In this document: positions 1 to 50,256 of the stretch, piece by piece
Layout: the number at the start of each line of letters is the position of its first letter
How positions within the stretch are numbered: position 1 is the stretch's first letter
Assembly (NCBI RefSeq): GCF_031769215.1
Contig: NW_026782978.1
Span: forward strand, 62,001 to 126,000
Length of the DNA stretch: 64,000 bases
DNA from: Ylistrum balloti
Lineage: Eukaryota
Direction: 5' to 3'
The notes under the pieces: generated by a model
Database searches by the model: none
The model's input: the letters and a program-made list of their open reading frames with translations, nothing else
Told to the model about the DNA's origin: nothing
Position numbers and translations under genes: made by a program

Positions 1-116
1 GGTTACAACCTTAATTACATAACCACTGTGTCCTTTCTGAGTAAGAAACTACTTGGAGGTGAAATATGTTGTCTATAACCACCAATAGTTTAACACACAT
101 CATCTAACAGAGATAA

Positions 117-3100: not shown

Positions 3101-3740
3101 GCTCTCCCTGTATGTCGGTGTGTAGGAACCTTCACTCCCTGTATGTCGGTGTGTAGGAGCCTGCTCTCCCTGTATGTCGGTGTGTAGGAACATTCTCTCC
3201 CTGTATGTCGGTGTGTAGGAACCTTCACTCCCTGTATGTCGGTGTGTAGGAACATTCACTCCCTGTATGTCGGTGTGTAGGAACCTTCACTCCCTGTATG
3301 TCGGTGTGTAGGAACATTCACTCCCTGTATGTCGGTGTGTAGGAACCTTCTCTCGCTGTTTGTCAGTGTGTAGGAGCCTGTTCTCCCTGTACGTCGGTGT
3401 GTAGGAGCCTGTTCTCCCTGAATGTCGGTGTGTAGGAACATTCTCTCCCTGTATGTCGGTGTGTAGGAACCTTCACTTCCTGTATGTCGGTGTGTAGGAG
3501 TCTGTTCTCCCTGAATGTCGGTGTGTAGGAACATTCTCTCCCTGTATGTCGGTGTGTAGGAACCTTCACTCCCTGTATGTCGGTGTGTAGGAGCCTGCTC
3601 TCCCTGTATGTCGGTGTGTAGGAACCTTCACTCCCTGTATGTCAGTGTGTAGGAGCCTGTTCTCCCTGTACGTCGGTGTGTAGGAGTCTGCTCTCCCTGT
3701 ATGACGGTGTAGGAGCCTGCTCTCCCTGTATGACGGTGTA
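117..3740. repeat. 30-bp minisatellite, about 120 units, consensus CTCCCTGTATGTCGGTGTGTAGGAGCCTGCT, with several unit variants and an occasional longer variant containing TATAACGCAGCAAGTATC
   Basis: The tandem periodicity is directly visible. All long minus-strand ORFs here (HRHTG/YTPTY/HTDIQG) are translations of this unit. Confidence 0.97.
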
Positions 3741-4113
3741 AGTAGTAAGAAATTGCCGGTATAAGCGCATTTTCAAATTAGGGTTGAAAACCAACCACTA
3801 ACACATCTGACTCAACAAGCTCAAAACCAACCACAACAATGTTTAAACAGGGTCTAAATGACTTAAAGAAAAAACATTCTATAATGTAACGAGCGGCCTC
3901 GCAAGCTCGACTATCTCCTTATTGCTGACCCATGAATTGAACGTCTCTGGATAACCCTTCCACTTGACCAGCGACCTCGTTTTACCCTTCTTGACGACTT
4001 TTTCTATCCTGTATACCTCTTGGCCCGTCTTCTGCAACTCGGGTTCGTAGAAGGTACCCCGAATTTCTTCTCCGTTTTGGTCGCTAATCTTATACGTTAC
4101 GGGCGACGTGCGT
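3741..4113 (+). repeat. Polinton left terminal inverted repeat (373 bp)
   Basis: Reverse complement of 23365-23737, with 3 substitutions found by eye. Confidence 0.95.
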
Positions 4114-4812
4114 TGTACCGCCGTTATCGTGAATACTTCTTCCGTCCATCTTGATAGCCCTTCTCAAAAGTTTTCTTTATCTTGCTTATCCGCACGGCGT
4201 CTCCGACGGAAAACTTGGGGTGAATTATCCTAGGCTCATCATGGTTGGGGTATAGATTCATCCACACTCGGGTTTCATTTTTCTTCTTTCTGGCTTCGGT
4301 GGGTGTATGTTTTGTTGACGAGTGTGTCGTATTATTGTACTGATCGACAAGTTCGTCGAGCACATTGATGTAGAATTGGAGGAAAAATATTTCCACATTT
4401 TTTCCTTCATCGTTCCGATCCATCTCTCCACCACACTCGATTTTTCCTCGTTTTCAATCGAGTATAACTCGACTAAACTGTGCACGTCTTTATTGTAAAA
4501 CTCTTTGCCCTTATCCACCCAAATCTTTTTCGGTTTCCTCCCCTTGAGTATCTTTTTCAGTGCAGCTGCGACCGATTTCCCCGTTTTATCTTTTAATGGC
4601 ACTAACCAACCGTACTTGGAGAAAATGTCGATAACGGCAAGGAGATACTTGGTGCCGCGATTAAATTTCGAGAATGCCTGCATGTCTACCAAATCTGCGG
4701 CCCAAATTTCATCGATGCCATTAACACGTACCCTCCTTCTCTCAAACTTTTTTCTCATGGGTCTGTGTAATTCTTCAGCCAATGCTTTGAGTGCTGTAGG
4801 TGTTGAGCTCAT
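3879..4812 (-). pseudogene. Polinton retroviral-like (rve) integrase with C-terminal chromodomain; two frameshifts
   Basis: LAEELHRP start, DDE-type motifs WAADLVD / IWVDKGKEF / VVERW, then YNNTTHSS and KFSVGDAVRIS, then WTEEVF...YRIEKVVKK..SLVKWKGYPETFNSWV (chromo), with the stop at 3879-3881. The pieces lie in different frames (shifts near 4370 and 4150). Confidence 0.92.
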
Positions 4813-5501: not shown

Positions 5502-6266
5502 ATGGAAGTGAAAGATTTATCGTGGAATGAAATGGTATCAAAACGGTTCAATCACAAGCTTCTGCCAAAAAGCATAAGGGGAGTGATTGTAGGCAAATCG
5601 GGGTGTGGTAAAACCACACTTTTGCTCAATCTTTTACTGAGACCGGGTTGGCTTGACTATAACAAGCTAGCAGTATTCGGCAAGAGTCTATTCCAACCCG
5701 AATACCGCATCCTCAAGAAAGCTTTTGTAGAGAAATTGCCAAAAGAAGCTATTATGCGCTTGTTTGACCTGCGCGATGAGGTAATGAGGTTAGATGTGTC
5801 ACCCGCAGCGCTTGTTGAGGCATGGTCTAAAGAGATTAAAGACAAGTCTGACATACAATGCTGCTTTTACGAATCTGCCGAAAACGTCCCAGACCCCCAT
5901 GATTTAAGTTCCGAAAACAAGAATTTAATGATATTTGATGATTTGCTGTTGGAGAAACAGAATTACTATATTCGTGGAAGACACAGCAATGTAGATTGTT
6001 TCTACCTTTCACAAAACTACTTCAAGCTACCACGCCAAACGATAAGAGAAAATGCAAACTTTATCTGCTTGTTCCCAGAAGACCTGAAGAATATCAACCA
6101 TATCAATAATGATCATGTGAGTCAAGACATGTCAAAAGATGAATTCAAAGGTCTGTGCAAGGTAGCATGGGAAAAACCACATGGGTTCGTAGTGATTGAC
6201 CTGACCAGTAACAGGCAGAATGGTAAGTACAGAAGTGGATTTGATACATTTTATATTCCGAGTTAA
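5502..6266 (+). CDS. A32/FtsK-HerA-like genome packaging ATPase
   Basis: Walker A GKSGCGKT, Walker B LMIFDD, and RGRH / YLSQNYF motifs. The start is placed at the ATG at 5502, after the TATATTAAAAA motif. Confidence 0.93.
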   Translation: MEVKDLSWNEMVSKRFNHKLLPKSIRGVIVGKSGCGKTTLLLNLLLRPGWLDYNKLAVFGKSLFQPEYRILKKAFVEKLPKEAIMRLFDLRDEVMRLDVSPAALVEAWSKEIKDKSDIQCCFYESAENVPDPHDLSSENKNLMIFDDLLLEKQNYYIRGRHSNVDCFYLSQNYFKLPRQTIRENANFICLFPEDLKNINHINNDHVSQDMSKDEFKGLCKVAWEKPHGFVVIDLTSNRQNGKYRSGFDTFYIPS

Positions 6267-6292: not shown

Positions 6293-7051
6293 ATGGAACC
6301 AATACTTGAAAAAATAGCTGAAAACACTGAGCCTAAAAGCTCGTTTCAGATTGTCCTGAATAGCAACAAGACAAGATTTAGAACTAGGTTCAATCCACCA
6401 ATTCAACTCGACAAAAAGAAAAAGCACGAGATGGCACTCGTCATTCTCGAGACTTACTACTCTTTTCCAAACATTAATTATTTTAGATACTCACCCGATG
6501 GCGGAACAACGTGGGTCGAAATTTATTTACCAGAAGGTATCTATAACATCGATGACATTAACGACACAATTCAACAAAAGATGAGGCAGAATGGACACTA
6601 TGGCAGTGTCAATGAGGAATATTACGTTACAATTTCTGCAAACACGAACACACTAAAGACTGTCCTTATTTTAGATAATAATTACCAGGTAGACTTTAGG
6701 CATCCCAACTCCATTTCCAGTGTATTAGGATTTAACCACGACATTTACGCACTAGGATTTCAGGAGTCTGAAAATGTCGTCAACATTCTTAGTATTGTCA
6801 GCTTGCATGTTAATTTTGACAATATCTCAGGGAGCTACGTTAATGGAGCTTCACAACACACGATATACTCCTTCTTTCCAAATGTCACCCCTGGACATAA
6901 AATAGTTGAAACACCACGAAATTTGGTGTATCTTCCCGTGACACTAGACACCATACACAGTCTTGAGACTTCACTCACCGACCAAAATGGCACGCTGCTA
7001 AATTTAAGAGGAGATAATTTATCATTGAGGTTTCACATCAGACAAGTGTAA
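6293..7051 (+). CDS. Minor capsid protein (penton, single jelly-roll)
   Basis: 252 aa, beta-rich, with FNPPIQL, YYSFPNI, SGSYVNG..IYSFFPNV.PG.KIVE.P.NLVYLPV and LTDQNG..LNLRG motifs typical of Polinton pentons. It lies next to the ATPase. Confidence 0.82.
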   Translation: MEPILEKIAENTEPKSSFQIVLNSNKTRFRTRFNPPIQLDKKKKHEMALVILETYYSFPNINYFRYSPDGGTTWVEIYLPEGIYNIDDINDTIQQKMRQNGHYGSVNEEYYVTISANTNTLKTVLILDNNYQVDFRHPNSISSVLGFNHDIYALGFQESENVVNILSIVSLHVNFDNISGSYVNGASQHTIYSFFPNVTPGHKIVETPRNLVYLPVTLDTIHSLETSLTDQNGTLLNLRGDNLSLRFHIRQV

Positions 7052-7661: not shown

Positions 7662-7734
7662 GTGTTTCATGCATACGTGGTCATGAACATATATATATAT
7701 TAAAATATATATATATATATATATTCAAAAAAGA

Positions 7735-8121
7735 ATGCCTGTTCATAAATTTGGTGTAAAACCGAAAAATTGGTATAACTTGCCAAGACAGCCGAAGACG
7801 ATTTACTGGATACCGGTAATGGATGTAAAACATCCTCCACAGAAGGTGCAACCAGTCACGTGGGAAATTTTCAATCAAAATAAACTTACCATCGGATCAA
7901 AAGAAAATAAAAAGATTAGATTAAGGTTTGGATTGAGGATGACTAGTGGTATGGTTTTAACGACACTAAAGCAAAGCCTTAAAATGAGGCAATGCAGTAT
8001 ACAAAATGAAGCCATTCTCGAAAGTGTTGATGATGTGGTGATAAACATCGCGAACAATTCGAACGGGGTTGTTGTCATTGAGGAAAACGAGCCTCTATGT
8101 CTCATACATTATATGACATAA
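7735..8121 (+). CDS. Hypothetical protein with a probable degenerate dUTPase-like fold and an MPVHKFG N-terminus
   Basis: Clean ORF with the TATA-like upstream motif. Its residue pattern parallels trimeric dUTPase strands, but catalytic motifs are lacking. Confidence 0.5.
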   Translation: MPVHKFGVKPKNWYNLPRQPKTIYWIPVMDVKHPPQKVQPVTWEIFNQNKLTIGSKENKKIRLRFGLRMTSGMVLTTLKQSLKMRQCSIQNEAILESVDDVVINIANNSNGVVVIEENEPLCLIHYMT

Positions 8122-8145
8122 AAAAAATCTCACACATATAAAAAT

Positions 8146-8784
8146 ATGGAAATCAACAAAGTGAATAATGATACGGCGCTTTATCCAAAGTTGCCAACAG
8201 CTCCCCCTGAAGATGAGGGACAAGGTTATCGTTTACAGAAAATTAACGAGATTCAGAGGATTCTCGAGGAAGAAAGAGAAAAGCGTGAGACCCTCAGCAA
8301 GAAGTACCACAGAGCCGTGAAGATAGTGGATAATGTCGATGTTGGTCTTATCGGCGTCATCATGGGGCTTGGCATCGGTGGTGTTAGCCTTTTATCTACG
8401 GTAGTAGCAGCACCGATTGTTGTCGTGATGGAGGGCGTTGCGCTTGCTACCGGAGCTCTGAGTATCGTCGGAAAATATGTGAATAGGAAGTGTGCGGCCA
8501 AAGCCGAAAAGCACGAAAAGATCAAGGTTTTGGCACAAGCAAAACTGAACACGATATCGTCGTACATTTCGAGGGCGCTAGCCGATAATGCAGTAAGTGA
8601 TGAGGAATTTCAATTCATACTAGCAGAGTTGGTCAAGTACCGCGAGATGAAGGAAGAAATAAGAAAGGTTTCCAAGAAGCACATGGACTATGACCTACAG
8701 CAATCCCTGATCGAACAGGGAAGGCAGGAAACCCGCGAGTCCTTCCGCAAGTTGTTCGAGAAAAATAATCGAGATGAAAAGTGA
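8146..8784 (+). CDS. Conserved adintovirus membrane protein (GasderminX-type)
   Basis: LYPKLPTAPP..YRLQKINEIQ..LE.E...R..L.KKY.R, a central hydrophobic hairpin, then KHEKIKVLAQAKLNTISSYISRAL.D..VSDEEF. The pattern is recalled from adintovirus genomes. Confidence 0.7.
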   Translation: MEINKVNNDTALYPKLPTAPPEDEGQGYRLQKINEIQRILEEEREKRETLSKKYHRAVKIVDNVDVGLIGVIMGLGIGGVSLLSTVVAAPIVVVMEGVALATGALSIVGKYVNRKCAAKAEKHEKIKVLAQAKLNTISSYISRALADNAVSDEEFQFILAELVKYREMKEEIRKVSKKHMDYDLQQSLIEQGRQETRESFRKLFEKNNRDEK

Positions 8785-8877
8785 GATGAAAATCGAGATG
8801 AAAATCGAGATGAAAAGTGAGATGAAAATCGAGATGAAAAGTGAGATGAAAAACGAGATGAAAATCGAGATAAAAAA
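8770..8877 (+). repeat. 12-bp tandem repeat GAGATGAAAA(TC/GT), 9 copies
   Basis: Units start at 8771, 8783 ... 8867. The first units overlap the last codons and stop of the 8146-8784 ORF. Confidence 0.93.
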
Positions 8878-8911
8878 TATTATCTTTAGAAACAAAAACA
8901 AAATTTCTAAA

Positions 8912-11900
8912 GGAGTATGTATGATTTGGCCCCCTCTTCAAATTTGATGAAATACCTATATTGAGTAAGGATAGTAACGTAATTAATGAATTGGGGGATT
9001 TTAGCATGTTTTCTTTCTCGGCGCATGCGTAGTGGCACTTCAAATATAGGTGTCACACCAGTATTTTTTAAGAGAAAAATGACAAAGCATTACAAAAAGA
9101 TTCTGTAACTTTTAATTATCATACAAATATGCTGCTTAATATTGATGTAATTAAATCACTTATGGAAGTTATCAACTAATGGCTTTTGCTAGCAAAGGCT
9201 TAAATTAAACTTTTAATATATTTACATTTGGTACCTTAGCAACGAATTATATCACATAGCAACGGCATGGCTATAAGATTTATTACTGGTAACAACATTT
9301 TCTATCATCCGATTTTGTGAAATGAAAACAAATCATAGCATATGTGACATAATTATATGGACTAACTTTTTTTACAAAGGTATTTTAATGCAAACATTTG
9401 GGAAGTGACAATAATTTCCCTAGCAACAGAATGTGTCGCATAGCAACAACAATACCTTATATTGATAACAACATTTTCTTTCCAGTTTCAAGATTTTTCT
9501 TCTGCTGTACTTAATGAAAACAAAATATTTCTCATGTTTTCAGTAGCTAAACTTTCTAATAAAGGTATCACAATATAGATATTAGAGTATTGATCAAAGT
9601 TGGTGCTCTAGCAAAGTATTCTGACACATGGCAAGAATATGACCTAAACTGTTATTTTTTTTATATTGTTTCAATGTTTTTTATTGTACGTTATTTAATG
9701 AAAACAGATCATTATCACTTTCCATGGACTAACCTTTTCTTACGAAATATGTATAATATAAACATTTTGATACAGATCAAAGTTAGTACCCTAGCAACAG
9801 AGTCTATCACATAGCATACCTGTAATTGTTAACATATTCTTTTCTGTTACAATATTTTTCCACTTGTTACTTGTTGAAAGCGAAACACTTATCACATAAT
9901 TTCATTGGTAAAACATTTTTGTTATAAAGGTATACTAGTGTACACAATATAAAAAACTGATTATTAATCAAAGTGTGCAACAAAGTCTATCACATAGCAA
10001 GAACATCACCTAAGCTGTTATCGGTTTCTATTTTGCTTCATACATCTGCACTGATGCTTTTGAAAGCAAAGCATATTCGAAGCATATAATCAATGTATAA
10101 CCTTTGGTTTTGTTCACAGAATTTAACAAACATGAAAATGAACAAGTGATAAGCGACTTCAAATTATATCTACTTTAAATACATGTAGTGTTACAGTTTA
10201 TTCCTCTGGATACTCCTCATCCGTGTCGGAATCTGTTGTTGGAATGTCAGCTGCATCAGCCAAAGACTTTGTCGAAATAGTCACTGCGCCAGATGATTCG
10301 CCTTGGAAGCGTTCATATCCTAGAAACCACAATGCACTTGCAATGTGGGCACAGCAACCGACCACTCTTGAGCCTACTTTACAAGTGCAGTACCAACCTT
10401 TGATGGGATCATCAGAAAGTGAGTCATACTCAATCCACAAAGAATGTGCTCTGCTGTTACAGTGTCGAGACTGTATTTTTAACTTGATCAGATTAGGGTT
10501 TTCTGAGAAGACCAGCAACTCATACAGTCCATCTTCAACACAGTGCTCCTTTGTATAACTTGGAGCCTGTTTAAGTTGATAAACTCCCATGGTGATGTTT
10601 CGTACGTCATCCATGGAAAGTTTAGGGAAGTCCATCAAGTCTTCTGCTTCCAGCTTTTGATAAACAGTTCTCTTATTTAGTAAGTTGTTGCTTTCCAAAA
10701 ATGCCTTCACTGTGTTTGGTTCCTTGGACTTTGCAAGCATTGCCCTGCAATGTGCTTCTGATGTTGCGTCAGTTTTCACAAGTGGTTCTTTAAACCTGTT
10801 GATAAGAGGACAGATGATTCTCACAAAGTCACCAATAGGAGGGATCAGGGTATTTGGAACAACTTTGTCAAACAGTTTCCATTGTTGTATCCTGCCATTC
10901 ACGCTTTCTACCACCCATCTTACTTTTGTGACTAAACCAGAAAGGTTCGCCTCTTCGGTGCTGTGCTGCTTGCAGCTTTTCTGAAGATAGAAGGGCATTT
11001 TCACATCGAAACCTCGGTCTTCTAGAAACCTCACAGCGTCCCTAAACCCCCTGTCTACAATGAATACGCCGCCGGGTTTGAACCACTTGCTAGCTTCCTC
11101 ATTTGCCCTAAGCATGTGTTTTGTAATGGAGGCATCGTTGTTTGAGCCATCAGCCAGGTAAGGTCCGAGCACATCCAGAATGTAGCCATCCGTTCCTACA
11201 AGCATCATTGGTTTAACGAGTGGTCTGTTCTTGTGCATAGAATAGGACCTCCTTTGGAATTTGTAGTCTGCACTCTTCTGGATGTAAACATAGGTGCCAT
11301 CAGCAACAACAATAGCCTCGTTTTCGCCTGGTTGGAACAATGATTTTGCTATATTTGTAGTGTGGTTTTGAACAAAGTCTCCATGAGATATGTGTTGAAA
11401 TCCAAGGTTATCTGGTACAAAATCTTCCACTAAGGCATTCCTTGTGCTGTTCACTATACGCTGGATTTGTGAATATGTTAAATGAAATAACACACCAATT
11501 AACTTGTTGGACAATCCACTACGTAATTTGAAGAGAAACACAGCAAGACATGTCCGGATTGACCTAACTGCTGAATTATTAAGTGATTTCAAATGAGTGA
11601 CAATTTCGTCAAAGTGCTGTTTGGTAAATCCTGTCAATGTTACATAATCTTCATTGGTTAAAAATATTGGCACATCGAAATTCAAATGTCCAGAATGTGT
11701 AGACAGCATCCTTCGAACTCCGGAGAGAAGACCTGTAATATCACTTCTTGAAAACCAGCCATTTGATTTCTTGGTTCCAAGTAATGCCAACGTATTTTCA
11801 TTCAGATAATTGTTCTCAATATGGCTCTCACAACATCTACTATGGGGGTGTATGAATATACCACATACTATGAAGGCCTGAGTAGTTCCTTGTTGTGGGA

Positions 11901-14108
11901 TGTTGGTTAAATGGTTTCTTTGGTTTGCATCTTTATGACATACAATACATGATTTATGAGATTTTGATATTGCGGGAAGGTTCAAATTAATAGTTTTAGG
12001 ACTCGACAGTGTCTTTTTCTTTGGTGGCTGAGAAATGTACTCGTCATCATTAGTATTTACAGGTGTCTGGTGAAATATTGGAAGACTCCTATACACTCGT
12101 GCCGTACATGCCCCGCATATCATGGCATTGCTACTCACGTCCCTGCAAACACATCGCTCCACATATCTTTTAAAGGCCACGCCAGGTGGGATATGCCTTC
12201 TAAAATTTGGTTTACACCTTTTGAAGCACATGCAACATGGGATGTCTTTTGGCATCTGGAAAGAAATATTTGATAAGTATATTAATACTTTATACCAACC
12301 ATATAAATCACAGTAACGTAGAAAAGTATAAAAAGAATATGTAAACATAAAAGTGACAACTTTTTATGTGGAACTCAAAAGAATGTGTGTTCTATACATT
12401 GTATAAGAAATTAAAAGTTGTAAACATAGATATTATATTCATATTTAAATTACATAACATATTTTTGTCATAATTGATCAATAATTACACATTATTTAGT
12501 GAATATGTTGTTAAGTTTTTTTACAATAAAATGAAGAAAACATAATAAAAAGGAACAGGCACCAGCACGACTGTAACTCACACAAATGTCGATAAATGTT
12601 TGTGAAATATGGATTGTCAACAAGATTTGAACTCACAGTTTAATTAATATTACAAATATTTTTTTCTTAATGTGAAAAAAATAAAATGTTGCTAAGCACT
12701 TTCAAGAACAGACTACATGGTTGCATTTTTAATTGAATTAAGAATAGGTATTCTTTTTATTTGAAATCAAAATAACTAAATAAAAAAGAGTTGTCAACAG
12801 CATTTGAAGTCAGAGCTTAATTAATTACACAAATAGTTTTAATTAATGTTAAAAATAATAATGTCTTGCAAAGTTCTCTCTAGAAAATATGTATTATAGT
12901 TTTGTATCTTAAATTGAATATAAAACAATAAAAAATAACAAAAAATAAAATTAATGATCATCAGGATTGGCAACCATAATTGCGGTCCTTATGCTCCTGA
13001 GCCAACCCTCATACCACTACACTACGGTACATCATATGCAACCGTAAGCTATTTTGAAAGTATATATACACCGACTATGTTGGCTTTCTCTCTGGCCGTT
13101 TCCAAGACAATAAGTATAAATAGATGCACTCTTTCATTTCTATTTTCCTTAGTTAGTAAAACGAATATTTTCAGACAGAAAGAAGACATTTTCAGTGGAC
13201 TTCAACAAGACACACAGTCTCTGTTGAAGTTTATAATGAATTACTCTTGTATTTATTGTGAGCTCGCCTTCAGACGACACTTCACCGTTTGTTCGGCGAT
13301 CAACATCAACAACATTCAAGCTGGGCTTGGTAGCACAGAATAATACTGTTTCAGAACTTTAAAAAGTATTGAGATACCTTTAAATAGATTTTATTGTTAA
13401 TAAATGACATTTGAATAAATTTTTTAACAAACATCACACAAAGTTAGTGGATTTTTTGCCGTCTACCTGTATTGGGGCATCTGTCAACCAGACGTAAAAC
13501 TGATGATGCAATCAAGTGCTGCAGACGTCCGATGAATAAAAAACTTCATTTTTTATATCACATCAGTTAAACATTTTTGCTAACAAGAATAAATCTTACC
13601 TTTCTTGGTTGTGAAAAATTAAGGAATTGTTGGTTTTAACTCCATCATTTGAGTGTTTCTGCTGCAGTAAACAAAAATATCGATAGCGGCGAAGTCCGTT
13701 TTCCGTGTTCCGGACCATATATTACACGCGATCTTGCATCAAAACGCCGAAAAATAATTTTAAAAACTATTTTTTTAATATGAGCGCAGTCTTGAACAAG
13801 TTTTTCCTTTTAACACAATGACTTTATTAAAATTTTTATTTTGTAGCATCAATATGAAACTTGTTCAAGCCTGCGCTCATGGTAAACTTCAGTAAAATGT
13901 ACCCACGAAATGGGGGAAATCACCGATTTTCGTGTTTTTTTGTCAATTTTCAAACAGCTATATTAAAAAATTGGTGATATTTTTTAAATCTTGAAAACAA
14001 TTCTAGAATCATGGACACTTCCATTATTAAATGTCTTCACTATTTTGATTTTCTGAGACAGTTTTTCTTATATTGGGGGTGCATAGGTACCCAAACCATA
14101 CATACTCC
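8912..14108 (-). mobile_element. Cut-and-paste DNA transposon (IS5-like DDE_Tnp_4; PIF/Harbinger-ISL2EU lineage) nested in the Polinton
   Basis: 18-bp TIRs GGAGTATGTATGATTTGG / CCAAACCATACATACTCC (1 mismatch), flanked by TTTCTAAA on both sides (8904-8911 and 14109-14116). The interior is AT-rich and holds one large transposase ORF. Confidence 0.88.
10198..12255 (-). CDS. Intact DDE transposase (about 685 aa): N-terminal Cys-rich region, HTH, DDE core and C-terminal SWIM zinc finger
   Basis: VADGTYVYIQKS, IVDRGFRD and RWVVESVNG give the D-D-E triad; WYCTCKVG..VGCCAH is the SWIM finger. The ATG at 12255 directly follows the acceptor TTTCTTTCCAG. The ORF is uninterrupted. Confidence 0.9.
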   Translation of the reverse strand: MPKDIPCCMCFKRCKPNFRRHIPPGVAFKRYVERCVCRDVSSNAMICGACTARVYRSLPIFHQTPVNTNDDEYISQPPKKKTLSSPKTINLNLPAISKSHKSCIVCHKDANQRNHLTNIPQQGTTQAFIVCGIFIHPHSRCCESHIENNYLNENTLALLGTKKSNGWFSRSDITGLLSGVRRMLSTHSGHLNFDVPIFLTNEDYVTLTGFTKQHFDEIVTHLKSLNNSAVRSIRTCLAVFLFKLRSGLSNKLIGVLFHLTYSQIQRIVNSTRNALVEDFVPDNLGFQHISHGDFVQNHTTNIAKSLFQPGENEAIVVADGTYVYIQKSADYKFQRRSYSMHKNRPLVKPMMLVGTDGYILDVLGPYLADGSNNDASITKHMLRANEEASKWFKPGGVFIVDRGFRDAVRFLEDRGFDVKMPFYLQKSCKQHSTEEANLSGLVTKVRWVVESVNGRIQQWKLFDKVVPNTLIPPIGDFVRIICPLINRFKEPLVKTDATSEAHCRAMLAKSKEPNTVKAFLESNNLLNKRTVYQKLEAEDLMDFPKLSMDDVRNITMGVYQLKQAPSYTKEHCVEDGLYELLVFSENPNLIKLKIQSRHCNSRAHSLWIEYDSLSDDPIKGWYCTCKVGSRVVGCCAHIASALWFLGYERFQGESSGAVTISTKSLADAADIPTTDSDTDEEYPEE

Positions 14109-14969
14109 TTTCTAAAGATTACAGATCCCGAGAAAAGGGATTTAATCGTAAAAGAGTTTCTCGAGCTGAAAAAGAGGCTCCAAAACAGAGATATAGAGAG
14201 ACGGACTGGTGAACGAGAGTTACAAACAGATCTCAGTAAAATATTCAAATCCATAACGGACGTACAAAAAAGTACGGCAGAAGACATAAGGTCTGATACT
14301 AGCCCCATCAAAGAAAACCTATCGGAATTGAAGAAAATCACATTTCCAGCGTTTCCATCTATAGAGGGGTTTCAACAACAAGAAAAGGAAGATACTGATA
14401 CGCAGTTTATCGGACCAATCGCGCAAGAATATTTAAGGAAGTTCGCCTCCAAATCCGAGGCTGATAGAACGTACGGGCTATACGATAAAAACGGCAATTT
14501 TTATATAGGCAATAAGCCCGTCGCCTTTGTAGATGATAACATAGTAGTGGATGGTGAAGAGTACCAAGGAACACCGGGATTGTGGGAACTCATCGTAACC
14601 AAGAATCCAGACGATCAAATATACACCGACCAGGACTACGAAAATTACGCGAAGATGATGATTGAATCGACCGCTCTCAAAAAAGGCAACGATCCAGAGA
14701 GTAACAGACCAGAGGCCAGCAAGGGGTTGAAATGGAAGAATGTGCTTAGAACCATTTGGACTAATAGGGATTATTACGAAGGGACCGGCACATCTGTTGT
14801 CATTCCTAGCGATCCTAATGAATTGCTCGAAAGACTAGACCTGCTGATGGCAAGCAAGGCAGCGGGTAACACAGGCGTTCGGAACGAGCTTGTATCGATT
14901 TGCGATGAACTAAAAAGACAAAAGGTGCTGGACGTCAATGCATATAAAAAAATAATATCTAGACTATAA
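14109..14969 (+). pseudogene. Conserved Polinton protein of unknown function, with its 5-prime end disrupted by the nested transposon
   Basis: FLKITDPEKRD.IVKEFL...GTPGLWELI...DPNELLERLDLLMASKAAGNTGVRNE. The reading frame begins at the TSD; the MGVHRYPNHTYS start in the ORF track is transposon TIR sequence. Confidence 0.75.
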
Positions 14970-14975
14970 AAAATA

Positions 14976-15400
14976 ATGTTTATAGCAAAGAATCATGGAT
15001 TTAGAAGACAGTATGTCTATGGCGGTGCTGGAATGTTTGATAGCATCGCAAGTTTTTTCACTAGATTATTTACTAGCAATGCTGCGAAACAGATTGCCTC
15101 TACCGCTCTAGATGCTGGTAAAAGCGTTGCTAAGGAAGTTGGGAAGAAAGCTATGGATGCTGGAAAGACTGCAGCTCTTGATGCTGGAAAGAATTTCCTT
15201 GAGAAAGGAGTGCGCGGTCTCGCACGTAAAGCTCTTACACCCAAATCTCGAGCAATTCTACAACGGCGAAGCAGTCATCCCCAGTTGATCAGAATATCCA
15301 TTCACTAATAGATGGGAGCGGAATGCAGCAACAGAGGGCGATTGCGATTCAAGACCTCGTCAAAAGATTGAATCAAGGATCTGGTCTAAAATTGATTTAA
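14976..15400 (+). pseudogene. Amphipathic virion protein (cupiennin-like or pVI-like); one frameshift
   Basis: VYGGAG-MFDSIASFFTRLF amphipathic helix and an Ala/Lys-rich region. The second frame continues ...IDGSGMQQQRAIAIQDLVKRLNQGSGLKLI to the stop at 15400. Confidence 0.6.
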
Positions 15401-15425
15401 AGAAAAATGAAATCTATAATAAAAA

Positions 15426-15783
15426 ATGGCTATCGAATTCAAGCGTCACGATTACCAAACACGCGATTCATGTATTTTGGTCAAGAATGCAAGGATCAGC
15501 CTTGAAGGGTGTGAATTCCTTGAAACTGAAGATGTAAATGGGCATCATAGAGGTGTTGTCTTGAAACTACCCGAAGAGAAGGTAGACAGGATGAAGGAGA
15601 TTGAGGGAGAGGTTAATGATTATCTTTATAACGGGTTTAGGCAAGATAAAGCTTGTCTACGAAAACAAAATTTGTGCAATGTATTGGAAATGTACTCCTA
15701 AAGAACACTTTGATAGTATTGTGTTGTCGGACGTGTATGTTAATAATGCTGGCAGGGCGCTCGCCCATTTGTGGGTTCTGTAA
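15426..15783 (+). pseudogene. Hypothetical protein split by a frameshift
   Basis: ORFs 15426-15701 and 15601-15783 overlap and join near 15635. The start follows the TATA-like motif. Confidence 0.5.
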
Positions 15784-15845
15784 ATTTTTTTTATATCTGT
15801 AAAATGATATAAAAAAATTTTCTCTTGCTAATAAAAAAATAAAAT

Positions 15846-17140
15846 ATGATGAACATTCTAAATTTTACTGAGGCTCCCATGAAGGATGAGAGCATCGAAG
15901 AATACGAACACTATGAGTACGATCCGATTACCGGTACGAATCTCAATAACCCAGGTGAGCTCAGGATCAATATTGAAACACAAGATCTGTTTACTCACCC
16001 AAGCGAGAGCTATCTGATCATCGAAGGGCGTCTGACAAAAACTGACGGGACCGCTTACGCAAACGATGATAACGTTACACTGACGAATAATGCTCTCATG
16101 TATCTTTTCAGCAACATCAAGTACCAGCTTTCAGGACAGGAGATTGAATCTCTCTTTCATCCAGGACAGGGTACAACGATGCTTGGTCTGTTGAAATATC
16201 CAGATGACTTCTCCAAGTCGCAGGGTTTGAATCAATTGTGATACAAGGACACATCAGCTGCAGCATCTGCAGCTGCAGCAGCAGGCAATGCCGGATTTAG
16301 CGTTCGCCAATCCTATATAACCAAATCTCCTGATCCAAAGGGCACATTTAGTTTCAGAGTACCACTCAAGCACATCTTTGGATTTTGCGAAGACTATGAC
16401 AAAATTGTGTATGGTATGAAACAAACCCTGACTCTGGTGCGGAAAACGGACAACGATGCGATCTTCAGGAATGCAAATGTTGATGATGGGAAAATTACCT
16501 TCGAAAAGGTGTCGTGGTTTATGCCTCATGTACTACCCGCAGATGCTGAAAAATTTCAGCTTTACAAGACACTCGATTCAAATGAGCTTCTACCCGTAAT
16601 GTACAGGATCAGGCAATGTGATTACATCTCCATACCACAGTCAACTAGCTTCACCTGGAGACTATCTGTCAAATCAGCGCCTGAAAGACCGCGCTATATC
16701 ATTGTCGGTTTCCAAACTGACAAAGACGGTGACCAAGAGCAGAATCCTTCCATCTTTGACAACGTCAATGTGAGGAATATATTTGTCATGCTAAACTCGG
16801 CTAGATACCCCGCAGTTGACTACAACCTCTCCTTTCCCAAACAGCAATTCAGTCGGGCGAACGGTGATGTAGCAGCCTTCAGGTCCAAGTTTTACAACAT
16901 GGACGAGTTGGTGTCAAACCCCAACATCACCCCGCCGATTACAAGACACTTTTCCCACTGTTTGTGTTCGACGTCAGCAAGCAGAGTGAGCGACTGAAGA
17001 CCGCAGTCACTGACATCCAAATAAAAACTCAGTTTAATGCCAACGTGCCAGCGGGTACCGAAGCATTTGCTGTTGTGATTAGTAACAAGATGATAAACTT
17101 CAAGACCGATGGGAAGAAGGTAAACGTTGTATATAGCTAG
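15846..17140 (+). pseudogene. Major capsid protein (double jelly-roll, hexon/PY); premature TGA at 16239-16241 and a frameshift near 16935
   Basis: DESIEEYE..EY.P.TGTNLN.PG..RI.IE.QD.F..P.ESYL, VPLKHIFGFCEDY.K..YG.K..L.LVR, PRYIIVGFQT and LF.FDVSKQSE motifs. Confidence 0.9.
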
Positions 17141-17198
17141 ATTTCTACATTTCTTGAAAATGACTTTAAGAAAATAAAAATCTATAATAAAAAAAACA

Positions 17199-17516
17199 AT
17201 GTTGAAACTGTCTGAATTGAAAACAATTCTTCGTGAGAATAAAATCAAAGGTTATTCTCATTGCGGCAAGAAGCGGCTGATCGAGCTGTTGAAAGGAAAG
17301 GAATTAATACCAGAGGAACCACCCAAACCAGTGAAGACAAAGAAAGAGGTAGATCCAATGGCAGTTAGAAATAACCCCAAACCTGTTGTGTTGAGGGATG
17401 TTGATACTGGAGAGGAGATTACATTTCCATCCATTTATAAGGCATCTCAATTCATAGACAAATCCTCGAGGATAATAACCTTTTGGGATGGAAGGGTGTG
17501 GAAAAGCAAGATGTAA
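17199..17516 (+). CDS. Small putative DNA-binding protein (Rho-N/HeH-like helix pair plus NUMOD1-like HTH)
   Basis: LSELKTILRENKIKGYS..KK.LIELL and TGEEITFPSIYKASQFI patterns. Confidence 0.55.
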   Translation: MLKLSELKTILRENKIKGYSHCGKKRLIELLKGKELIPEEPPKPVKTKKEVDPMAVRNNPKPVVLRDVDTGEEITFPSIYKASQFIDKSSRIITFWDGRVWKSKM

Positions 17517-17622
17517 GCAAAAAAAAATGTTGTATGTGGGTTAACATATACAACATTCATGAAAGAATAATTTTTTTTTGAAAATGACTTATAGAAAAAA
17601 AAATCTATATATAATAAAAACA

Positions 17623-20600
17623 ATGAGTCTTTTCAGAAGAATTAGTAATGCGGCTATGAATGCTGCAACAAACATTGCTAGAGGAGCAAGACGACTGGCA
17701 TCGGCTTTCATCCCACAGAGGAATCCTCCAGATCAAAATTTCTTAGATGCAGATGTACCTAGCATCAATGTGCCGACTCTTCAAACTGTCCTTATCCCTA
17801 CAACCAGGGACAAGGTTAAACAAAAGGTAAATAAATCGATCAAAGCTGCTGTAGATTGGGTTGAATGGCTGCATGATGCAGACAGAGAAGTTGTTAAGAA
17901 GGCCCCATCGAAATTAAAAGCCTTGAAGGAAAAAGTAGATGCTTTATTCAGAAAGCAGCAGATGTTTGAAATCAGAGAGACAAGATCTGCTCTGAGGAAA
18001 TTTACGACTCAATATACCATAGATGGCAGAGAGGGGTTTGATGCTCAATCGTTTCTCAACACAGCCCGACAAAATGTAGTTAACCTCTTGAGAGGAATCC
18101 GAGGCACTAAGGTAAAGCTAATTCTTAGATGTAACATGGAAAAAGTGAACCTTGTCAGTGCCTCGGAAACAATCGTAGAGCCTGCAGCCTTTCACTCTAA
18201 TGTCGAGATTAACCTCGATGGAACAGATGCAGATGAGCTGTATGATGCAATGGTTGATAGAGTCATGGAGGCCATGGCGACATTCCAGTTGCGAGGCAGC
18301 AACTGGACATTTAAATCTATCATTGCCATTGAAATTCATACAGTTGCTTATGAACCGTTGAGGGGGGGCTCTTACATCCCTACTCCGGAGGCCCTTGCAC
18401 ATCCTAAAATGGGAGTGATCAATGTAAAAAATGATGACAACAGATGCTTCCTCTGGGCACTGGCTCGAGCATTACATCCCGTAGAACGTGATGCTTGCCG
18501 CATAACTAAGATGCTCAGAATGCAAGCAGAAAAACTCAACATGGACGGTATTGATTACCCAGTTAGTCTTAAGACAATAGATCATGTCGAGAAGCAAAAC
18601 CCAGACATATCTATTACTGTCTTTGGCTATGAAACTAGTGTTCACCCCCTCCGAATAAGCAAACACGTTGATAGGGTAACAATAAACCTTTTATTGATCA
18701 CTGATGGGGAAAAGCAGCATTACTGCGTCATCAAAGACAAGAGCCGTTTGTTGTCCAGCCAACCGGAAACCACCAACACAAAAATTATTACTGTCTCAGA
18801 TGTTTGAACCCCTTCTACTCACAGGAATCGTTGAATAAGCACATGGAATACTGTTATTCAAACGAGGCCGTCAAGATAGAGATGCCAGAAGAGGGTTCGA
18901 CCATTTCGTTTGCACATACACAAGTCCATGAGAGTGCCGTTCACAGTGTATGTTGACTTTGAATCTTTCATCAAACCCGTAGATACGTGTGAACCGTGTC
19001 CGGGAAAGAGCTACACGAAGAAATACCAGAAACACACCCCATCGAGCTTTTGTTACAACATCAAATGCTTTGATGATGGTGTCTTCTCTAAAGATCCGGT
19101 TACCTACACCGCGAAAACTGACGACGAAGATGTCTCCCAAATATTCGTAGAAATGTTGGAGAAAGACATCAAAGAAATTGGCAAAATCCCTGCGAAACTA
19201 ATGATTTTTGGGGAAAATGACCGCAAACAATTCCAAAAGACGACAAAGTGCTGGATCTGCGAAGGTGAGTTCGGTAAGGATGACAAGAAGGTGAGAGATC
19301 ACTGTCACGCTACTGGGAAATACCGAGGTGCAGCTCACAATAGTTGTACCTTGCAGTACAAGAAGCCGAAGTTCACTCCCGTGGTGTTCCACAATCTGAG
19401 CGGCTATGACAGTCATCTGTTCGTCAAGAACCTCGGTAAAACTGAGGGGAACATCAACTGCATCCCGAACAACGAGGAAAAGTACATCAGCTTCACCAAG
19501 GAGGTTGTTGTCGGTTCTTATACTAGCAAGGACGGGAAAGAGAAGGATGTTAAGCACCAGCTCAGATTCATCGACAGCTTCAAGTTCATGGCCTCTAGCC
19601 TGGATAAGCTGTCCGGTAATCTGGATCAGGACTGCTTCACTAACACTTCGAAGTACTATAACGGAAAACATCTAGACTTACTAATGAGAAAGGGTGTCTA
19701 CCCATATGAACTCAAAAGACTAGATGAAACAGCCCTTCCACGAAAAGTAGCGTTCTACTCCAGACTCATTGGAGAAGGGATTAGTGACGATGCACAAACT
19801 GTGTGGAAAGAGTTTGGCATGAAGTCACTCAGGGACTACCACGAACTGTACAACCAGTCGGACGTGTTGCTCTTGGCAGATGTCTTTGAGAACTTTAGAG
19901 ACGTCTGCATCAAGAACTACGATCTTGACCCTGCCTGGTATTATACAGCGCCTGGACTAGCATGGGACGCTGCCTTGAAAATCACCGAAGTGAAGTTGGA
20001 GCTGTTATCAGATCCAGACATGTTGCTCATGGTGGAGAAAGGTATCAGAGGCGGGATATCGATGATCAGCAACAGATATGGCAAAGCAAACAACCCATAC
20101 ATGGGTGAAACATTCAACCCCCATGATCCTGCGAAGTATATTGCCTATTTGGATGCCAACAATCTCTATGGTTGGGCCATGAGCAAACCGCTCCCTACAC
20201 ACGGATTCGGGTGGATGACAGACAGTGAACTGGACTCTTGGAAGAACCACAGCTGTATACTGGAGGTTGACCTTGAATATCCAAAGGATCTGCATGATCT
20301 CCACAATGACTATCCGCTCGCTCCAGAAAGTCTCAAAGTCCATAATGTGGAAAAGCTTATTCCCAATCTCAATGACAAAACTAACTATGTCATTCACTAC
20401 GAGAACCTCAAACTATACGAGGGCTTGGAAATGAAGATTACAAAGATCCACAGGGGCATCAGGTTCGAGGAAAGTGCATGGTTGAAGCAATACATCGACC
20501 TGAACACCAATCTCCGAGCAGAGGCAAACAATGAGTTTGAAAAGGACTTTTTCAAGGTCATGAACAACTCTGTTTTCGGAAAGACTATGGAGAACATTAG

Positions 20601-21333
20601 GAGCCGAGTGGATATCTGACTAGTCAACGACGAGACAAAAGCGAAGAAGTTGGCAGCAAAACCCAATCTTAAACATTGCATCATCTTCGACGAGAACCTG
20701 GTTGCCGTACATATGAAAAAGACGAACCTGAAGTTCAACAAGCCCGTTTATCTCGGGATGTGCATCCTCGATCTGAGCAAGACGTTGATGTACGACTTCC
20801 ATTACAATTACATGAAGACAAAGTACGGAGAAAAGTCAAAACTCCTGTTTACCGATACCGATTCCTTGGCATACGAAATCCAGACGGAGGACTTTTACAA
20901 GGACATCTCTGGTGACGTAGCAGCCAAGTTTGACACCAGCAACTTCCCAAAGGATCACCCATCGGGCATCGAAGTCGGTCGTAACAAGAAAGTGGTGGGG
21001 ATGTTCAAGGACGAGGCAGGAGGTAAGATCATCCGAGAATTCGTGGGATTGAGAGATAAGTTGTACAGTTACAAGTTGCTTGAGGGGTATGAGGAGAAGA
21101 AGTGTAAGGGGGTGAAAAGGTCCGTTGTCAGAAAGAGTATTTCGTTTGAGGATTACAAGAAATGTTTGTTTACGGGTGAGGATCAGTTGCGAAAGATGAA
21201 CGTCATCAGGAGCCACTGTCATGATGTGTACACCGAAGAAATTAACAAAATAGCTCTTTCGGCAAATGACGACAAGCGAATCATCCTCCAGGACGGGATG
21301 CGCACACTAGCCCACGGACACTTTAAACTTTAA
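17623..21333 (+). pseudogene. polB: Protein-primed family B DNA polymerase (pPolB) with N-terminal terminal-protein/vOTU-like region, zinc finger and EndoVII-like insert; two frameshifts and one nonsense codon
   Basis: Exonuclease motifs VYVDFES, FHNLSGYDSH and YNQSDV. Polymerase motifs YLDANNLYGWAM, KVMNNSVFGKT, FTDTDS and KLYSY/KKCKGV. Also NDDNRCFLW..HY, CLRC..H..C and DHCH. Breaks near 18770 and 18910, and TGA at 20617-20619. Confidence 0.95.
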
Positions 21334-21348
21334 TAGATATATATAAAA

Positions 21349-21687
21349 ATGAACATTTCAGTGGGAAAAGTCGTTCTGCCAAATAAACCGCTAAGTAATA
21401 TCGAGTTAACGAGGGCTGCAGATGAATTGAAAATACCAAATTTTAGAGGAGTATTTCTGTGCGATACACTTCCGAAGAGACCAAAGAGAAATGAATGTGG
21501 GATTCTGAATTTAGATTCTAGTGACGGAGGAGGAACGCACTGGACCGCCTGGTACAAACAAGGAAAAAATAAATACTATTTCGATAGCTATGGCATACAA
21601 CCTCCGAATGAGTTGATATCCTATTTGAAGCGAGGGATCTTGTATAATAATATATATATTAAAAAACATGCAAATTTGGATATATGA
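21349..21687 (+). pseudogene. Adenain-like maturation cysteine protease, C-terminally truncated
   Basis: FRGVF..D.LP, ILNLDSS.GGGTHW.AW and YFDSYG supply the catalytic His and Asp. The sequence breaks after LYN, before the Q..CG catalytic Cys motif. Confidence 0.88.
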
Positions 21688-22226
21688 CGTCAGAGTACAA
21701 CATCCCACCACCAGAACCCGGTGTGTCTCTGTCGTACGTCAATAAGAATTTCCAAAGAAAAGCTGATGTGACTAAATTAGAGATGGATATCCAGGATCTA
21801 AGAGTCAAGTATTCTCAGCTATTAATGAATACACAAAAATTACAAAGAAAAATGAATAAAAAATATATAACTATCTGGGCTGAAGAAAAAGGTGGACTGG
21901 TGAAAGGGAAGTACGAATACTCGTTCGGTGATGGTGCAACAGGTAAAAACGCTGGCTATACCGTGCTAGCACCATCTAAAGTTTTGAAAATAGGTACGTC
22001 GGTTACAACACCAGAATCCACTCCCGTAGAGGCTGGTGTAGTCCTCGTGTTAAATGGTAGTAAAACTCAATGTAAAATTTTAAAGCCACAAGGAGAATTT
22101 AATCACGTTTCGGATGTGAGAGGAATCAGTTTAAATGTAGGTGATGTGCTCAACTTTGTAACCAACGTAACAACAACAAAAATTACCGGAGCTATTATTT
22201 CACTTCTATTAGAAATTAATTTATAA
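21684..22226 (+). CDS. Putative spike/decoration protein (coiled coil plus beta-sandwich head)
   Basis: Shares its N-terminal module with the 22248 gene. It has a heptad-rich segment followed by a beta-rich domain. The original start at about 21668 appears to have lost 8 nt. Confidence 0.55.
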   Translation: MTSEYNIPPPEPGVSLSYVNKNFQRKADVTKLEMDIQDLRVKYSQLLMNTQKLQRKMNKKYITIWAEEKGGLVKGKYEYSFGDGATGKNAGYTVLAPSKVLKIGTSVTTPESTPVEAGVVLVLNGSKTQCKILKPQGEFNHVSDVRGISLNVGDVLNFVTNVTTTKITGAIISLLLEINL

Positions 22227-22247
22227 AAATATACATATAAAAAAAGA

Positions 22248-23365
22248 ATGCCTGTTCACAAATTTGGATATATGACGTCAGAGTACAACATCCCACCACC
22301 AGAGCCCGGTGTGTCTCTGTCGTACGTCAATAAGAATTTTCTACGAAAGAATGGGTCTACCGTAACTGGTTCCATCGATATGGCGGGAAATACGTTAACG
22401 AACGTGTCGGATCCTGTGAACGCGCAAGACGTCTCTACTAAGAATTATGTCGATGGTCAAATTGTTAACCCTACACCCGTAACCACCCTCGTTACAGCAG
22501 GTTTGTATAATCTGGATGATACGTATCATATTATTCTAGCAGATACCACCAGCGGAAACGTTGTGCTAAAATTTCCGCCAACAGCTACCGTCGGTAAAGA
22601 ATACTTAGTTATTCACGAAAAATACGGTAATCAATGTTCAATGTGGGATAATGAGAATAGAATAGTAAATCCGTATGACAGTACTGATACATCTGTTGGG
22701 ACTTTACAATCTTTGATTGTTTTTGGTGGAGAATCGAGAACATTTACGTGGAGTGGTAAACATTGGATGGTTACTTCAAAGTCCATTCGTGAGGTAGCTA
22801 GAGTTAGTAAGAGAGGAGACACTATGACTGGATCTTTGCATATGGGAGGCCATGAAATAACTGGCCTATCCTTGGCTCAACCCTCGACTGATGGTCACGC
22901 CGCAACAAAAGGTTATGTGGATGCTGTTTTAGTTGACTCGTGGAGAATGTATGGTCCATATACTTATTTGCACACTCAAGCAGAAACTATCACCCCATCA
23001 ACTTTACCTTTTATAACACTAACGATCTCAAATGTAAAGGCTGGGGATTATTTAGAGGTTTTCGTCTACCTGGGTGTGGATTATAGGAGTTACTATTTTA
23101 TTGGTGATTTGGTGATGGTAGACGTTGAGACGGGGGATGGGTTGTTTGAAAACGCGCCCCTGATAAGTCAGTTTGCGGCTGATAGTAAAGGTACTAAGGT
23201 AAAAAAAAAACGGCCTACATGATGTATATGTCACCCGTTCCTATTACTCGTGATGCAAATGCTGTATGCACAATTAAGGTGAAAGCAAAAACAATATCAC
23301 CAAGAGTATATCTAGAAAACCGGTGTAAATTATATGTGAAGCACATGAACAAATTTACTGCCTGA
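22248..23365 (+). CDS. Fibre-like protein with phage tail-fibre-type repeats; the frame changes at the A10 run at 23201-23210
   Basis: LTNVSDPVNAQDVSTKNYVD, ADTTSGNVVLKFP and KRGDTMTGSLHMGGHEITGL..P..DGHAATKGYVD. The -1 frame stays open for about 50 codons to the TGA at 23363-23365. Confidence 0.7.
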
Positions 23366-23737
23366 CGCACGTCGCCCGTAACGTATAAGATTAGCGATCA
23401 AAACGGAGAAGAAATTCGGGGTACCTTCTACGAAGCCGAGTTGCAGAAGACGAGCCAAGAGGTATACAGGATAGAAAAAGTCGTCAAGAAGGGTAAAACG
23501 AGGTCGCTGGTCAAGTGGAAGGGTTATCCAGAGACGTTCAATTCATGGGTCAGCAATAAGGAGATAGTCGAGCTTGCGAGGCCGCTCGTTACATTATAGA
23601 ATGTTTTTTCTTTAAGTCATTTAGACCCTGTTTAAACATTGTTGTGGTTGGTTTTGAGCTTGTTGAGTCAGATGTGTTAGTGGTTGGTTTTCAACCCTAA
23701 TTTGAAAATGCGCTTATACCGGCAATTTCTTACTACT
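23365..23737 (-). repeat. Polinton right terminal inverted repeat (373 bp)
   Basis: Inverted copy of 3741-4113. It ends ...TTCTTACTACT and is followed by the GGTGTA TSD. Confidence 0.95.
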
Positions 23738-50084: not shown

Positions 50085-50256
50085 ACAAGAGGTGAAGGTC
50101 ACACAACATTTTTTAACTGGTACTACTGGTCAGTGAACATTGGTACTCTCCTCGCCCTATCGGTCATCACCTGGGTCCAACAAACACATTCCTTCTTTAT
50201 GGGCTTCCTTTTAGCAACCACCTGCCTTGGAGTGTCCTTCCTCATATTTATGACAG
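50085..50256 (+). CDS. SLC15A4: SLC15A4-like transporter, second coding exon
   Basis: Acceptor TTTTCCACAG, in phase with exon 1. Reads TRGEGHTTFFNWYYWSVNIGTLLALSVITWVQQTHSFFMGFLLATTCLGVSFLIFMT-G (FFNW.YWS.N.G motif). Donor ACAG|GTAAGT. Confidence 0.9.

Follow-up and report, generated by a model that had tools for sequence, protein, structure and literature searches.

The stretch of Ylistrum balloti DNA analysed here (64,000 nucleotides (nt) of contig NW_026782978.1, hereafter 'the window') contains a decayed copy of a Polinton. In the family of elements to which this copy belongs, one short N-terminal peptide (the tag) heads three genes: two fibre genes, B and C, and one gene, A, for a protein with a dUTPase fold; the family consensus reads M-P-[V/I]-[D/H]-K-F-G. 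Structure prediction places the tag in the cleft between neighbouring subunits of the penton, and we consider it probable that the tag binds there and that it serves to anchor A, B, and C at the capsid vertex. For the fibres B and C, we hold vertex anchoring to be likely with good confidence; for A, which shares just the seven residues, the balance leans slightly to the doubtful side. The features on which this account turns are the following.

6293–7051, + strand: penton (minor capsid protein, PX) with the predicted socket; 4 residues shorter than in sister copies (pairwise alignment)
7727–7754, + strand: A-rich leader and tag codons of gene A; 27 of 28 nt the same as 22240–22267
7735–8121, + strand: gene A; seven-residue tag, flexible linker of ~15 residues, and dUTPase-fold body (residues 22–128), probably inactive
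21668–21760, + strand: start block of gene B, damaged; tag not encoded in the window copy
21684–22226, + strand: gene B, surviving frame; short helical stalk and jelly-roll head (~21849–22223)
22240–22348, + strand: start block of gene C (leader, tag, linker, and first helix; the shared block)
22248–23222, + strand: gene C; tag, phage-tail-fibre-type shaft repeats, middle domain, and head

The tag in the window and in its genome

Open reading frame (ORF) 7735–8121 begins with MPVHKFGV and ORF 22248–23222 with MPVHKFGYMTSEYNIPPPEPGVSLSYVNKNF, as the initial annotation of this DNA had read them, and the tag of A and C in the window is accordingly the seven residues MPVHKFG. That annotation had also noticed a common stretch upstream of the two ORFs, which is indeed present (the 27 of 28 matching nt cover leader and tag codons), and a nearly identical block of ~80 nt in the gene at 21684, which we find to agree with C at 79 of 80 nt (21671–21750 of B versus 22259–22338 of C). 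Its claim that all three proteins carry the tag stands for A and C and fails for B in this copy: the ATG at 21668 is followed by a short deletion and so no longer lies in frame, and ~115–125 nt further upstream of the B start are missing as well. Because B is broken at its start in the window, its tag is known from sister copies only, in which 12 B genes carry it (as MPIHKFG, MPIYKFG, or MPVDKFG); among the sister copies, the tag also heads 13 distinct A starts and 12 starts of C type. At the level of the family, then, A, B, and C all possess the tag; in the window copy, B does not. The shared start extends over seven codons and the A-rich leader between A and B or C, and over ~30 codons between B and C. 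In the 648-Mb genome, the exact tag pattern has 17 matches, every one heading an A- or C-type gene, versus none for the reversed pattern used as a control, which argues that the tag is not a product of chance.

Recurrence in related elements

The initial annotation had proposed recurrence of the tag on diverse proteins as a check, and many Polinton fibres that differ in their heads do begin with the tag, with a variable linker behind it. With the whole of C as query, 17 of 39 protein matches begin with the tag. A profile built on positions 1–34 retrieves 237 proteins, and among the best 150 of these 237, 146 match from residue 1, with shafts and heads of various kinds behind the match. A DNA pattern of the tag, blind to whatever lies downstream, has at least 123 matches in metagenome loci; among the matches listed, 78 come from loci that also contain Polinton hallmark genes, 28 are internal to a family of long bacterial-type ORFs and were set aside, and 17 are unplaced, with no hallmark gene in the available DNA. 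A protease homologue lies no more than 600 nt upstream of 72 of the 78 Polinton-type matches, and the tagged fibre gene thus usually comes after the protease gene. In IMG/VR, a fibre query returned 20 loci that match the shaft repeat only and include no Polinton relatives, the penton had no match, and the tag patterns had one and two matches, heading short ORFs of 18–33 amino acids (aa).

Two side observations concern individual matches. In the bacterial-type family (L107, L113, L119, and others), the seven tag residues are internal, ~105–145 aa from the end, which we take as coincidence. One ORF (L220:82-401, on a stretch of only 401 nt) starts with MPIHKFGH and continues with a sequence unlike A, B, or C; it could be a fourth tagged class.

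These counts bear on the reading under which the shared start acts in DNA or RNA (as promoter or translation start) or marks the N-end for processing and mediates binding for none of the genes. A/T-rich leaders precede all late genes of the element and the leader is included in the shared block, just as this reading would have it, but such leaders also precede the other 11 gene starts listed, none of which has the tag. Third codon positions moreover differ over at least 61 distinct tagged starts, so the DNA itself is not fixed; since the pattern fixes the residues, this silent-site variation speaks to the freedom of the DNA only. Of the 146 tagged starts, finally, 122 have Pro and 19 have Ser at position 2, unlike what a Pro-dependent N-end signal would require. 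We therefore regard this reading as very improbable. The tag was also considered as a protease cleavage site or a nuclear signal, and both were dropped, as it fits neither consensus.

Predicted docking on the penton

A complex prediction of penton and tag, the other check proposed at the outset, was made with three copies of a sister-copy penton (residues 10–256) and residues 1–34 of C. It places the C tag in a cleft between penton monomers with a complex score of 0.62 (runs 0.64, 0.62, and 0.58), versus 0.02 for the best of three controls, and at least 65% of contacts recur between runs. The mark used for such scores is reached by 51 of 78 solved pairs and 2 of 108 mismatched pairs and, in a eukaryotic calibration set, by 39 of 65 pairs without a like complex and 2 of 126 unrelated pairs. 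The best-placed tag residues are H4, K5, F6, and G7, and the cleft contacts comprise residues 87–91, 120–125, and 166–170 of one subunit and residues 55–57 and 205–207 of the next. Conservation over the 24 pocket residues is 0.87, versus a penton average of 0.79, a level that 301 of 20000 random sets reach.

Related pentons are described as having an inserted domain between strands D and E (PMC6048507), the insert being placed in a surface loop (PMC11071296). The penton pocket maps to the base of this insert, which suggests that the pocket lies on the outer face. In a by-eye comparison with Fig. S2 of PMC4028283, the P_AP, P-4_NV, P-3/4/6_NVi, and P-2_TC pentons retain the pocket segments, which differ in the CI, SP, XT, and CPB group; the former group would be expected to go with similar tags. 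Sequence searches of the PDB gave no match for the tag and, for the penton, only three chance matches at E of 1 or above and hence no solved relative.

Several points tell against docking as predicted. The calibration set covers no peptides, and the complex score expresses the confidence of the model; the predicted local distance difference test score (pLDDT) of the partner in the complex is 44–49; alignments were left unused; and what was folded is three of the five pentons of a vertex, from a sister copy, with the tag of C only. The 15 best-contact penton residues have a conservation of 0.84, which is not significant (3310 of 20000 random sets). Residues 27–31 of C occupy a second cleft in the complex model, so the pocket may be tolerant and accept any similar K/F stretch; the second cleft was probably filled because just one chain was offered. 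The conservation of the tag among profile and pattern matches, lastly, is partly there by construction.

The same points feed the suspicion that the tag is a protein-level signal for some other partner (the major capsid protein, an assembly factor, or a host protein) and that the penton model is a false pass: the penton was the only partner offered, false passes happen at the rates given above, and a second stretch of the same chain docked too. The score of 0.62 nevertheless exceeds those of the four mismatches that pass (0.34–0.59), the contacts are centred on the most conserved tag residues, and the control in which the penton was replaced scored 0.00. We consider another partner quite unlikely and retain the penton cleft as the probable binding site.

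Genes B and C: one fibre family

The initial annotation had described the three tagged proteins as unrelated. A is indeed foreign to the other two, but B and C are two members of one modular fibre family, since the B-type head is the commonest in the tagged family that contains C: it is present on 51 of 92 tagged proteins of at least 180 aa, most of these with C-type shafts. Of the others, 11 have shaft repeats at their end, and the remaining 30 make up 17 further tail groups, including an F5/8 discoidin group with five members and another group with seven; the 17 include one chance non-Polinton match and some broken frames. That most related fibres bear the same head type counts against the preferred reading.

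The model of the B head (pLDDT 90.7) has the tail fibre of phage 7-7-1 as its best match (Z 11.3, root-mean-square deviation (rmsd) 2.2, 107 residues aligned), and C1q/BclA-type heads reach a Foldseek template modelling score (TM) of only 0.4–0.5. C has 324 aa in the window versus 373–386 aa in three sister copies. The match of C to PF03906 is weak in the window (E 0.066), and 24 of 32 related proteins scanned match this family at E 0.01.

Start-block exchange and concerted evolution

The genome has two subfamilies of the element, each with both B and C. Within a subfamily, the start blocks of B and C agree at 87–89 of 92 nt (subfamily 1) or 73–76 of 80 nt (subfamily 2), i.e. 91–97%, and a 12-nt length difference between the start blocks of the subfamilies is common to B and C. 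Across subfamilies, orthologous start blocks agree at just 63–66 of 80 nt (~80%), and the orthologous bodies are 86–88% identical. Because starts are alike within a subfamily yet divergent between orthologues, these comparisons indicate that the B and C starts became alike once the subfamilies had separated, gene conversion being the simplest explanation. Variants of leader and codons occur intermixed across copies of A, B, and C. In one copy (L040), the protease gene is followed by a B-type start that leads directly into a C body, the B body being gone; on its sequence, this is a natural recombinant via the shared start block. In a metagenome locus (L143), the protease gene is followed by two tandem tagged starts, alike at 65 of 69 nt, the second gene ending at the contig edge. 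A fibre with a B-type head that continues into a second tagged start (P0157) was observed separately and also points to tandem tagged genes.

Gene A: a dUTPase fold with a tag

The dUTPase likeness that the initial annotation ascribed to A is borne out by its fold. The model (pLDDT 71.6, with residues 1–22 below 50) reaches a Foldseek TM of 0.71 to vaccinia dUTPase and compares with human dUTPase at Z 13.6 and rmsd 2.2 over 106 aligned residues. At E 0.1, A has no Pfam match, including none to the dUTPase family; PDB sequence searches with A and with the A alignment gave no match; and identity to solved dUTPases is 5–16%. The end of A corresponds to residue 106 of 120 of the equine infectious anaemia virus (EIAV) dUTPase, ahead of the C-terminal arm, and in a by-eye comparison with the motif consensus, the five conserved catalytic motifs were not found in A. 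With no Pfam match and an end before the C-terminal arm, the modelled protein is probably enzymatically inactive, and the reading of A as an active dUTPase was set aside on the same grounds.

As a protein query, A has seven matches, of which five begin with the tag; the two others lack the N-terminal part, which detracts from the case for A, as does the seven-row basis of the conservation values that follow. Tag positions 4–7 are invariant in all seven rows kept (linker 0.70, body 0.77), three of these rows being from this genome (10 were aligned; P0042, P0045, and P0046 were dropped). A further point on the same side is a metagenome contig, apparently an intact Polinton, in which a dUTPase-fold relative of A (L130:9352-9702, 37% identity) lies directly behind a tagged 470-aa fibre gene and is itself untagged; it is the sole A relative among the metagenome loci listed. 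Taken together with the invariant positions 4–7 in the other rows, this untagged relative has as its simplest reading that one A lineage acquired the tag and retained it.

An untagged relative is also what one would expect if the tag anchored B and C only and had come to A as a hitch-hiking expression start, copied onto a non-structural pseudo-dUTPase comparable to adenovirus E4-ORF1. A and C share the leader besides the codons, start blocks have visibly been swapped among A, B, and C copies, and viral dUTPase-derived proteins are often regulatory (PMC8961515). A passive passenger accords poorly, however, with the invariance of H-K-F-G in A relatives at 57–82% identity, in which the linker drifts, with the differences at synonymous sites inside the A tag between the two subfamilies, and with the position of the tag on a flexible arm that is not part of the dUTPase body. 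We judge the hitch-hiking reading unlikely and keep the anchoring of A, itself a close call, within the proposal that follows.

A proposed vertex arrangement

Under the preferred reading, K5-F6-G7 of C would be seated in the predicted inter-subunit cleft of the penton, and the three tails of each putative trimer could fill three of the five clefts in the manner of adenovirus. One socket would likely take different spikes, and alternative spikes might occupy different vertices. A may have received its tag when a fibre start was copied and could serve as an alternative short spike, and gene conversion would hold the tags within an element in step with the penton of that element. Taken whole, this amounts to a plug-in vertex, in which the tag fits a conserved penton cleft, recombination in the start block reshuffles bodies, gene conversion keeps the plugs alike, and a dead dUTPase trimer has been made a spike simply by gaining the tag; we put this forward tentatively, as a picture rather more apt to err in some part than to hold throughout. 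The modular spikes on a common vertex anchor that the initial annotation had envisaged are supported for the fibres, in the recurrence of the tag and the predicted cleft, and are corrected to one fibre family with a recruited A.

Most fibres of animal Polintons lack annotation, and the tag bears on the way in which these elements, as particles, would attach to cells. The tag can serve as a marker for fibre genes whatever the head and as a sign of selection on the elements as virions, and a short tag with a predicted socket lends itself to a direct binding test that needs only peptide and penton.

The element and its other genes

The remaining features of the element are the following.

3741–4113: left terminal inverted repeat (TIR), 373 nt, 99% complementary to 23365–23737
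4258–4812, - strand: rve integrase, partial (PF00665 above cut-off)
5502–6266, + strand: A32-type packaging ATPase (PF04665 above cut-off)
15846–16997, + strand: double jelly-roll (DJR) major capsid gene, fragmented (PF21738 on two ORFs, above cut-off)
21349–21687, + strand: adenain-like protease gene, shortened in the window copy (PF00770 weak, E 0.059)
23365–23737: right TIR, pairing with 3741–4113

The TIRs, integrase, ATPase, capsid gene, and protease identify the element as a Polinton. Its decay is evident from a curtailed protease (112 aa, where sister copies have 137 aa), the split capsid and polymerase genes, and a nested DDE transposase gene. The split ORFs at 17584–21333 resemble PolB by eye, and neither of the two that were scanned has a PolB Pfam match. 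The penton ORF at 6293 has no assigned Pfam family and 1831 relatives in a protein search. Among the relatives of the element's proteins, Capitella teleta is the sole named organism. Over the first 61 penton residues, we counted by eye 42 identical to the row P-4_NV_PX in Fig. S2 of PMC4028283.

The DDE transposase gene (PF13359) is open, encodes 716 aa (10198–12348, - strand), and is accompanied by 184-nt spaced repeats at 9228–9999. It lies within the Polinton, between the capsid block and a neighbouring gene that we take to be gasdermin-like. The Polinton itself sits inside a short-unit tandem repeat (1–3740 and from 23738 onward), a 34-nt flank being repeated on both sides at 94%, and the end of the window (50149–64000) is a long array of 55-nt units. 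In another copy in the genome (L103:8972-9839), the ATPase gene passes straight into gene B, the intervening region being missing.

Comparison with known systems

The virion module of Polintons and beta-type adintoviruses comprises TIRs, rve integrase, A32 ATPase, DJR capsid protein, PX penton, and protease (PMC8502044 and PMC4028283); the window element has the same gene set, but in a decayed copy. Neither the text of PMC8502044 nor the available part of its supplement showed the tag, and our literature search, whose coverage left most subscription journals outside, found no paper on the tag or on a Polinton fibre–penton structure.

Polinton-like virus fibres are phage-like and assumed to be attached to the penton (PMC12220804); Ltf has been reported in PgVV-14T particles (bioRxiv 10.1101/2022.07.28.501842), and fibres have been described from oomycete Polintons (10.1101/2023.08.22.554363). 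The fibres described here resemble these in being modular, with lectin-type or phage-type heads and an assumed penton attachment. The available parts of those papers state the attachment by analogy with adenovirus and name no anchoring peptide or socket.

In E4-ORF1 of adenovirus and in betaherpesvirus tegument proteins, which are dUTPase-derived non-enzymes (PMC8961515), the dUTPase fold is reused without catalysis, as is presumably the case in A. Those proteins act in regulation or in the tegument, whereas the docking tag of A is of fibre type and suggests a position on the outer capsid.

A close parallel is the adenovirus fibre, the tail of which (FNPVYPY) attaches in the cleft that two penton monomers form (PMC8156859). 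In both systems, a short conserved N-terminal peptide is followed by a shaft and a variable head, the domain order of the tagged fibres fitting the tail-shaft-head plan, and cleft binding is predicted here. Several fibre genes per genome are likewise found in human adenoviruses F40 and F41 (HAdV-F40/41), aviadenoviruses, and lizard adenovirus 2 (LAdV-2) (PMC8156859). The Polinton family differs in its motif, which stands at the very N-terminus (FNPVYPY is absent from A, B, and C), in its phage-tail-fibre-type shaft, in its small 256-aa PX penton without a sequence match to solved pentons, and in the presence of the tag on a dUTPase-fold protein as well. By analogy, the design would work like the adenovirus fibre tail with a different motif, Polinton-like fibres as such being already in print. 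If true, this would extend the adenovirus fibre–penton design, under another motif, to a lineage thought to be related to adenoviruses and would reveal a simple route from an enzyme fold to a structural spike.

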